Source of the DNA: Escherichia coli
Lineage (GTDB): Bacteria; Pseudomonadota; Gammaproteobacteria; Enterobacterales; Enterobacteriaceae
DNA: 64,000 bases
Reading direction: 5' to 3' (one strand)
NCBI RefSeq assembly: GCF_003334255.1
Contig: NZ_QOWU01000005.1
Position 1 is the first letter of the stretch. Each line of letters opens with the position of its first letter. This document shows, piece by piece, positions 26,397 to 27,679 of this stretch. Under the pieces are notes generated by a model, which saw only the letters and a program-made list of their open reading frames with translations, was not told the DNA's origin and ran no database searches. Both the position numbers and the translations under genes were made by a program.

Positions 26397-27401
26397 TCAA
26401 ACTTTATAGAAGTTACGATACCATTCTACAAAGTTCTTTACCCCCTCTTTAACTGACGTTTCAGGTTTGAATCCTATTACGTCATACAGTGCTTTTGTAT
26501 CAGCACTGGTTTCCAGTACATCACCGGGTTGGAGAGGCATCATATTCTTGTTGGCTTCAATACCCAGAGCCTCTTCTAAGGCATTGATATAGTCCATTAA
26601 CTCCACAGGCGAACTATTACCAATGTTATAGACACGATATGGTGCTGAACTTGTTGCTGGCGAGCCTGTTTCTACAGCCCACTGTGGATCTTTTTCTGGA
26701 ATAACATCCTGTAAGCGAATAATAGCTTCGGCAATATCATCAATATAAGTAAAGTCACGCTTCATTTTGCCGAAGTTGTAAACATCAATGCTTTTACCTT
26801 CCAGCATGGCTTTAGTGAATTTAAATAATGCCATATCCGGACGTCCCCATGGACCATAAACCGTAAAGAAACGCAGCCCTGTGGTCGGTAAGCCATACAA
26901 ATGAGAATACGTATGGGCCATGAGTTCATTCGCCTTTTTAGTTGCTGCATACAGCGAAACAGGATGATCTACAGAGTCATCTGTAGAGAAAGGCATCTTG
27001 CGGTTCATGCCATAAACAGAACTGGAGGAAGCGTAAAGTAGATGCCGAACATTATTATGGCGACATCCTTCCAGTATGTTCAGGAATCCAATCAGGTTTG
27101 CATCTGCATATGCATTGGGATTTTCAAGGGAGTAACGTACACCGGCTTGCGCAGCGAGGTTTATTACGCGTTCGAACCGCTCGTCTGCAAACAGTGCCGC
27201 CATTTTCTCACGATCGGCCAGGTCAATTTTATAAAAACTGAAGTTGTCGTGCTTGAGTAAATCAAGTCGTGCTTGTTTGAGGTTGACATCGTAATAATCA
27301 TTTAAGTTGTCAATGCCTACAACCTGATGACCAGCTGCAAGAAGCCGTTTACTTACATAGAAACCGATAAAGCCAGCAGCTCCCGTAACCAGAAATTTCA
27401 T
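26397..27401 (-). CDS. gla: UDP-glucuronate 4-epimerase (NAD-dependent epimerase/dehydratase, SDR family)
   Basis: 334-aa ORF: MKFLVTGAAGFIGFYVSKRLL Rossmann motif, YAATK catalytic motif; gene symbol is recalled usage and less certain than the family call. Confidence 0.8.
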   Translation of the reverse strand: MKFLVTGAAGFIGFYVSKRLLAAGHQVVGIDNLNDYYDVNLKQARLDLLKHDNFSFYKIDLADREKMAALFADERFERVINLAAQAGVRYSLENPNAYADANLIGFLNILEGCRHNNVRHLLYASSSSVYGMNRKMPFSTDDSVDHPVSLYAATKKANELMAHTYSHLYGLPTTGLRFFTVYGPWGRPDMALFKFTKAMLEGKSIDVYNFGKMKRDFTYIDDIAEAIIRLQDVIPEKDPQWAVETGSPATSSAPYRVYNIGNSSPVELMDYINALEEALGIEANKNMMPLQPGDVLETSADTKALYDVIGFKPETSVKEGVKNFVEWYRNFYKV

Positions 27402-27574
27402 TTATAATCCTCGCTCAGGCTAGAATATAGCCAATATTCATCTGGCATAACTGAAAGTTAAATCATACCGTTAGACAAGAAAAAAAGATAATCGGTATCA
27501 GTTCTAAACCTGGCTGTTTTTTCTGGTAACGTGCTCATTTTACAATCAAAGCTGTTCTAAGCTGACTATTAGCC

Positions 27575-27679
27575 ACCTTCAAACAACAAGCCGACGTCAT
27601 TATTTCCAACCGTATGGCAGAAGAGCTTAAGGATGTGGCAGATAAGGTCTATACCCGCGATCTCTTTGGCAGAGACTAA
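27575..27679 (+). pseudogene. Relic 3' end of a second, divergent ugd allele
   Basis: Translates to ...[33 protein letters not shown], matching the C-terminus of the intact ugd (...[33 protein letters not shown]). Confidence 0.65.

Follow-up and report, generated by a model that had tools for sequence, protein, structure and literature searches.

A divergent ugd-gla block beside wzzB in Escherichia coli and the remnant of the ugd that it probably replaced

Introduction

In a stretch of 64,000 nucleotides (nt) of Escherichia coli DNA (contig NZ_QOWU01000005.1, assembly GCF_003334255.1; hereafter the window), a gene for a predicted UDP-glucuronate 4-epimerase, gla, lies on the minus strand between ugd, which encodes UDP-glucose 6-dehydrogenase, and wzzB, and the end of a second ugd is found between gla and wzzB. 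Which of the two ugd ends belongs to the resident chromosome, how did an epimerase gene come to stand between them, and what does the arrangement provide? We found that the remnant derives from the 3' end of the ordinary E. coli ugd and that the divergent copy is the intact gene next to gla. Very probably, most of the resident ugd was replaced by a foreign ugd-gla block, which forms a supply module for galacturonic acid (GalA), the remnant being the scar of its arrival. The initial annotation had interpreted the duplicated gene end as a footprint of recombination, and this is upheld; it did not specify which copy is foreign, and the foreign partner is the intact gene. The event is better described as the replacement of most of the resident ugd than as a simple insertion.

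Results

The remnant is the end of the resident ugd

A repeat search pairs positions 26230-26331 of the window, at the end of the intact ugd, with 27578-27679 (102 nt, 77% identity). The translation of the remnant (27572-27679) matches Ugd residues 356-388 with 27 identities in 33 positions (E = 3e-17), which puts the proposed similarity to Ugd well outside chance, and over its full 108 nt it is 75.0% identical to the intact ugd, the value of about 75% first reported. It retains only the last 35 of the 388 ugd codons, in frame as originally described. The original end point, 27679, is correct; the start has to be moved from 27575 to 27572, where homology begins, and the distance to the epimerase start codon is 170 nt instead of about 175.

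Comparison with E. coli K-12 identified the resident copy. The gnd gene is 95.7% identical to that of K-12 and the intact ugd only 75.4%, and a single unbroken alignment at 89.9% identity extends over 27572-29600, from the remnant through the hairpin at 27689-27711, wzzB and hisIE into hisF. The base-by-base match to K-12 and to two other strains without gla begins at 27572, with no similarity upstream, which places an illegitimate junction at 27571/27572 (within 2 nt). When 27402-27700 was used as a query against our survey set of 5,426 complete E. coli genomes, 4,429 genomes matched, and in about 4,150 of them the match is restricted to query positions 171-299 (window 27572-27700). These genomes lack gla, and the match, at 90-98% identity, falls inside an annotated intact ugd.

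The remnant is 94-98% identical to ordinary majority-type E. coli ugd ends (94.4% to K-12, 96.3% to strain MEI1A-0323), against 71-79% for the corresponding ends in Citrobacter, Enterobacter and Kluyvera. Because it is nearly identical to the majority ugd end and collinear with the wzzB flank, the remnant is the end of the ordinary resident E. coli ugd, which here remains attached to the terminator of that gene and to wzzB. The intact ugd, at a minimum its 3' two-thirds, is the divergent copy that moves with the epimerase.

The opposite polarity, which the original wording permitted, would make the remnant a fragment of donor ugd carried in with the epimerase and the intact ugd the resident gene. 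As ugd adjoins gla in donor-like genera, co-transfer of a fragment is possible in principle. However, those genera have ugd at the 3' end of gla, and in none of the Citrobacter, Enterobacter and Kluyvera genomes compared does a ugd fragment lie between gla and wzzB; the ugd allele found together with gla is the intact one, and the identities of the remnant, together with its collinearity with the E. coli wzzB flank, are those of a resident sequence. We regard a foreign remnant as highly improbable.

Since the gene end is present as two direct copies at a distance of 1,348 nt, the ugd 3' end could also have been duplicated in tandem in place and the epimerase inserted later by a mobile element. 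The copies are 75-77% identical to each other, against 94-98% between the remnant and the ugd of other strains, and must therefore come from different allele lineages. Nor does the interval 26332-27571 show the traits of a mobile element: no transposase, terminal inverted repeats or target duplication surround it, the list of open reading frames (ORFs) contains no transposase or integrase within it, and the repeat search found no flanking inverted or short direct repeats around the block except the ugd ends. Insertion sequence (IS) elements were seen only in a different gla haplotype. Such a history has a next to negligible probability, and in-place duplication, IS-mediated insertion and a foreign remnant were all rejected on the basis of allele identities, the lack of mobile-element traits, and synteny.

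A single junction beside different O-antigen clusters

The gla allele of the window (at least 95% identity) is present in 279 of the 5,426 genomes. A ugd at least 90% identical to the intact copy (B-type) is found in 278, almost exactly the gla-bearing set, the rest of the species having 60-90% identity. A match to at least 80% of 27402-27700, taken as the full junction, is shared by 272 genomes and absent from the about 4,150 gla-less genomes with an intact ugd. With a more sensitive search, 524 genomes have some gla homolog, located beside ugd in every case inspected.

The gla-wzzB interval was aligned for six genomes with different O-antigen clusters (O167, O147, O113, O116, O133 and that of strain E21845/O/A, in which wzx and wzy are without an O-family label), and the same join was found in all of them. 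The remnant reads in frame in the window (O167); a single base is added in E21845/O/A and in the O113 strain, 17 nt spanning the junction are deleted in the O147 and O116 strains, and the O133 strain is divergent just upstream of the junction; these variants account for the span lengths of 2701, 2702 and 2685 nt returned by the genome search. The in-frame state of the 35 codons is thus an accident of the window strain, and the differing insertions and deletions argue against any function of the remnant, indicating that it is decaying. Together, the data indicate one old event whose scar decays beside at least six different O-antigen clusters. The event is not recent, since this gla allele varies within E. 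coli down to 96.8% identity (up to 3.2% difference). Our literature search found no paper that mentions the ugd remnant.

We also considered whether the two ugd ends could recombine with loss of gla. This would leave a B-type ugd without gla, and the counts of 278 and 279 indicate that such loss is rare or absent. In the porcine enterotoxigenic strain UMNF18 (O147), which has the same ugd-gla-remnant module, wzzB (14414-15391 of the extracted segment) is listed in the annotation as a pseudogene because of an internal stop.

On the left side, a third class of ugd has to be taken into account. In about 684 gla-less genomes the gene is a mosaic: identity to the window is 97-99% in the gnd-ugd spacer and over the first ~330 nt of ugd, and the sequence is K-12-like from about nt 440; the switch between alleles lies near nt 330-440 and not at the position of the remnant. 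Relative to this class, the left edge of the gla-linked block is near window position 25,500, and relative to K-12 it is just after gnd. The mosaic nature of ugd in the species prevents a closer placement of the left crossover. The 5' third of the K-12 ugd and its spacer are very divergent from the window and from the mosaic class alike (52-67% identity).

Identity of the epimerase

The initial annotation placed an epimerase gene on the minus strand, converging on ugd and preceding wzzB, and assigned it to UDP-glucuronate 4-epimerase; both statements agree with our analysis. The ORF at 26397-27401 encodes 334 amino acids (aa), with Pfam domain Epimerase (PF01370) at residues 4-231 (E = 2e-57) and the Rossmann NAD-binding motif GxxGxxG as GAAGFIG at residues 7-13. 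The closest solved structure is PDB 5U4Q of Klebsiella pneumoniae (E = 1.5e-190, 80.8% identity), labelled 'dTDP-glucose 4,6-dehydratase' by its depositors, a chain that may correspond to the assayed enzyme GlaKP. The UDP-glucuronic acid 4-epimerase of Bacillus cereus, BcUGAepi (6ZL6/6ZLA, E = 3e-43), follows, ranked above WbgU, WbpP and GalE, and the Joint Genome Institute (JGI) label on close relatives is 'UDP-glucuronate 4-epimerase'.

In BcUGAepi, T126, S127, S128 and T178 bind the substrate carboxylate and Tyr149 is catalytic, and criteria at the residue level have been published for the group (PMC7984243). Its T126, S127, S128, Y149, K153 and T178 align with S126, S127, S128, Y151, K155 and T180 of the window protein. 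Hence the catalytic Ser/Thr...Tyr-x-x-x-Lys triad (S126, Y151, K155) and the carboxylate-binding residues (SSS at 126-128 and T180 in FTVYGP) are kept, and the Glu that marks decarboxylases is not present at 128. With BcUGAepi and MoeE5 the protein shares the fold of extended short-chain dehydrogenases/reductases (SDR), the Tyr-Lys pair, and the carboxylate cradle of Thr/Ser-Ser-Ser plus Thr. In contrast to these similarities, BcUGAepi is a distant relative with another gene context, and the window protein has a 16-residue insertion around 232-250. On homology, conserved residues and synteny, the gene is predicted to encode a UDP-glucuronate 4-epimerase (Gla), and its product should interconvert UDP-glucuronate (UDP-GlcA) and UDP-galacturonate (UDP-GalA).

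An alternative is that the enzyme acts on UDP-GlcNAc/UDP-Glc (Gne) and not on uronates. The name gne was given to what is apparently the same gene, of 334 aa between ugd and wzz, in strain LL004 (PMC8657804). Furthermore, the UDP-GlcNAc 4-epimerases WbgU and WbpP are also strong PDB matches (E about 1e-38), and the title of the paper describing GlaKP speaks of 'extended substrate specificity'. Against this, the nearest relatives among characterised proteins are epimerases of uronates, the Ser/Thr cluster that binds the carboxylate is conserved in the window protein, and the gene adjoins ugd, the source of its presumed substrate; in addition, the LL004 unit contains GalA and the same report identifies no further gla (PMC8657804). 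A Gne function is therefore very unlikely, and the label of the LL004 gene is probably wrong.

The ugd-gla spacer and the region upstream of gla

The convergent ugd and gla genes are separated by 65 nt. As first noted, this spacer holds a hairpin capable of folding on both strands: the repeat search found a perfect 17-nt inverted repeat (26348-26364 and 26367-26383), with folding energies of -24.8 and -24.3 kcal/mol for the plus and minus strands, respectively (z = -6.1 and -6.6; none of 200 shuffled sequences folds as well). It scores as terminator-like in a terminator scan, and its 3' arm ends in TTTTCTTA on either strand. Since the palindrome begins with AAAAGG, the 3' arm of each strand ends in CCTTTTCTTA, which makes 'bidirectional terminator' a fair description, and the element at 26348-26383 is likely a bidirectional intrinsic terminator. 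In an Rfam scan of 24800-29000, the single match was sub-threshold and lay on this palindrome.

On the other side of gla, an AGGA Shine-Dalgarno sequence is located 8-11 nt before the ATG. The first ~95 nt upstream of the gene can be aligned with the corresponding regions of Citrobacter sp. FP75 and of a different E. coli haplotype (O111 type, below), so that this stretch arrived together with gla, and the promoter is presumed to lie within 27402-27571. Short conserved blocks 5' of gla, such as ATACCGTTAGA followed by an A-run, are common to window positions 27402-27530 and the O111-type haplotype, with an overall identity of ~77%; these blocks may represent promoter or regulatory elements of gla.

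Origin of the block

In Citrobacter, Enterobacter and Kluyvera, gnd and ugd are followed by a convergent gla and then by wzzB, which Kluyvera lacks, and hisIE. Compared with the window, their Gla proteins show 83-87% identity and their ugd-gla DNA 73-78%, the best DNA match outside E. coli being 77.6%, in Citrobacter. In a search of 5.8 billion proteins, the window Gla falls into an E. coli cluster with 814 members, and a donor search over these proteins and one genome per species recovered no Gla above 89% outside that cluster and no donor. The 89% protein is not from Escherichia, as the his genes of its scaffold are only 78% identical to those of K-12. We call the block an import because its divergence from the ordinary ugd is of between-genera size and both of its flanks are E. 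coli-like.

According to the model that we favour, a ugd-gla block with an intergeneric level of divergence would have entered a gla-less chromosome in which ugd stood directly upstream of wzzB. Homologous recombination in gnd, in the gnd-ugd spacer or in the 5' third of ugd would have resolved the left end, and an illegitimate join 108 nt before the resident ugd stop (27571/27572) the right end, leaving the 3' end of the resident ugd, its terminator and wzzB intact. The module would later have spread among E. coli lineages by homologous recombination, along with O-antigen clusters. The anatomy of the locus, the homologies, the polarity of the scar, its single junction and its distribution are observations; the enzyme activity, the donor, the exact left crossover and the gla promoter are what we infer.

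Several points weigh against the model. The left boundary is ambiguous, as described above. The closest Gla outside E. coli is 87-89% identical and the closest ugd-gla DNA 77.6%, and the term foreign is based on divergence and on synteny elsewhere. None of the NCBIfam models reaches its cut-off with the epimerase and no uronate-epimerase model is among the matches, the best scores being those for dTDP-glucose dehydratase (146 bits, cut-off 365) and GalE (145 bits, cut-off 262). A promoter scan upstream of gla gave no sigma-70-like site at the scan threshold. Finally, the structure alone is equally compatible with a mirror-image event, in which a native, scar-free ugd-gla-wzzB chromosome took in, from the right, an E. 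coli segment running from 108 nt inside ugd through wzzB into his, by an illegitimate join upstream of gla. Such an event yields exactly the same arrangement, and scar-free gla haplotypes do occur in E. coli, for example the O111:H8 type, in which gnd to hisH is only 78% identical to K-12. In the window, however, the sequences flanking the block are E. coli-typical (95.7% identity to K-12 in gnd, 89.9% from wzzB into hisF), and the gnd-ugd spacer and the ugd 5' third are common to 684 gla-less E. coli. Import of a short divergent block is therefore the more parsimonious explanation, and we consider the mirror-image event unlikely.

Other gla haplotypes in E. coli

Besides the scar-bearing type, three gla haplotypes were seen. 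The O111:H8 type (strain 08-4347, NZ_CP077545.1, 2007536-2016540) has gnd-ugd-gla-wzzB-hisIE-hisF-hisA-hisH at ~78% identity to K-12, with 87% to a metagenome scaffold and 83% to Citrobacter werkmanii; its gla is a different allele with an internal stop, there is no ugd remnant, and the stretch looks like a large intergeneric import that included the his genes. In an Enterobacter-like type (strains W150 and STEC367), gla and wzzB are separated by a truncated IS600 and an IS30, and a ugd remnant is again lacking. Its ugd-gla DNA is 84% identical to Enterobacter cloacae and its Ugd 97% at the protein level, and in W150 it adjoins a cluster with an O154-family wzx and an O100-family wzy. In strain LAU-OXA (NZ_CP045277.1, 1798730-1807712), a Klebsiella-like capsule-locus end, composed of ugd, a small membrane protein and gla, directly precedes an O8 ABC-transporter cluster, and gla is again a different allele with an internal stop.

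Layout of the locus and existing annotation

The RefSeq record of E. coli strain 214-4 (NZ_CP025840.1; human stool, Mexico) was used as reference annotation. Window positions 25100-27800 match its chromosome over their full length, at 100.0% as reported. Over a longer compared stretch, scattered single-base differences from the record were observed, one of them inside gla. The window is thus a very close relative or another version of the 214-4 genome, and not a base-perfect copy.

In 214-4, the gene order is colanic-acid genes, galF, the O-antigen cluster, gnd, ugd, the epimerase gene on the other strand, a partial pseudogene, wzzB and the his operon. The O-antigen cluster includes wzx and wzy labelled 'O167 family', glf, five glycosyltransferases and an ATP-grasp amidoligase. 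The epimerase gene is named 'NAD-dependent epimerase' and the remnant is a partial pseudogene, 'hypothetical protein, missing N-terminus'; both features are therefore already annotated in RefSeq, the remnant without a gene name. Between galF and the O167 wzx, at window positions 13199-13641, the same annotation has a frameshifted and partial pseudogene of an ISAs1-family transposase. The features of the locus are listed in table 1.

Table 1. Coordinates of the features of the gnd-wzzB interval and of the amidoligase gene in the window
Feature	Position	Strand	Basis or remark
ATP-grasp amidoligase gene in O167 cluster	17340..18194	+	214-4 annotation
gnd	23510..24916	+	left flank, E. coli-typical, 95.7% to K-12
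Intact ugd (UDP-glucose 6-dehydrogenase), divergent B-type allele	25165..26331	+	75% (nt) and 84% (aa) to K-12 ugd
17-bp perfect palindrome, likely bidirectional intrinsic terminator	26348..26383	either strand	repeat search and folding
gla, predicted UDP-glucuronate 4-epimerase, 334 aa, extended SDR	26397..27401	-	ORF, Pfam, structure matches
gla upstream region, 34.7% GC, travels with gla	27402..27571	-	comparison with other gla haplotypes
Remnant: last 35 codons and stop of resident majority-type (A-type) ugd	27572..27679	+	alignments; RefSeq partial pseudogene
Hairpin terminator of resident ugd, retained 3' of the remnant	27689..27711	+	folding, K-12 alignment
wzzB, right flank collinear with the remnant	27826..28803	+	K-12 alignment

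Discussion

Comparison with known systems

The arrangement has a counterpart in K. pneumoniae, where glaKP (uge), the gene for the UDP-galacturonic acid C4-epimerase, comes after ugd and runs 'in the opposite direction' (PMC3101168). As in the window, the same two enzymes are encoded convergently between gnd and the his operon, in Klebsiella at the end of the capsular polysaccharide (cps) locus. The Klebsiella pair, in contrast, is native, is deemed to serve synthesis of the lipopolysaccharide core (PMC3101168) and has no remnant, whereas the E. coli gene is accessory and carries a scar. Within E. coli, the published table for strain LL004, through which alone the comparison was made, lists ugd as orf10, a complementary-strand 334-aa NAD-dependent epimerase as orf11, a gap of ~410 nt, wzz as orf12 and hisI (PMC8657804). 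The paper differs from our reading in naming orf11 gne, in stating that gla 'always maps elsewhere', and in leaving a ugd fragment unmentioned. We find that gla of E. coli is an accessory gene linked to the O-antigen locus, and not a gene conserved elsewhere as the literature states. Displaced resident genes beside imported polysaccharide genes in the gnd-his region are also known from O89m strains, with a truncated gnd and remnants of O8/O9 clusters (PMC6128206). Unlike those recent, IS-bracketed imports from Klebsiella, the junction in the window is IS-free, a clean illegitimate join, and old.

Function and link to the O antigen

In the proposed pathway, Ugd would oxidise UDP-glucose to UDP-glucuronate, and Gla, expressed from the opposite strand by its own upstream region, would epimerise it at C4 to UDP-galacturonate, to be used by a glycosyltransferase of the O unit. 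The uronic acid of O167 would then be amidated with L-alanine, presumably by the ATP-grasp enzyme of the cluster.

The module was found with the clusters of O167, O147, O113, O116, O133 and E21845/O/A and apparently, judging from the published table, of LL004. We take O167, O113 and O116 to contain GalA, and presume that the O111:H8 and O8 clusters are not of the GalA-using type. An intact gla with GalA clusters, and a broken gla in the two inspected clusters believed to lack GalA, fit the proposed function. GalA is part of the O147 unit (PMC4206707) and of the LL004 unit (PMC8657804), and the L-alanine amide of O167 is documented (PMC7685785). The O-antigen clusters that accompany the module are mostly known or reported users of GalA.

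Implications

For basic biology the weight of the finding is small, as an accessory sugar-nucleotide gene with a gene-fragment scar is a familiar outcome of recombination between gnd and his. The shared junction provides a handy marker for movement of the module among serogroups. Given a gla homolog in 524 of the 5,426 genomes, beside ugd wherever inspected, descriptions of O-antigen clusters for GalA serogroups should cover the ugd-wzzB interval. A further reading, which we advance tentatively and rate as rather doubtful, is that the scar-bearing block is one ancient intergeneric import that has become a portable 'GalA supply' cassette. Its ends, with the ugd 5' part shared with ~684 gla-less genomes on the left and the remnant plus wzzB on the right, are such that homologous recombination could move it in or out. 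If this is true, GalA-containing O antigens would need the co-inheritance of two blocks, the galF-gnd cluster and the cassette.

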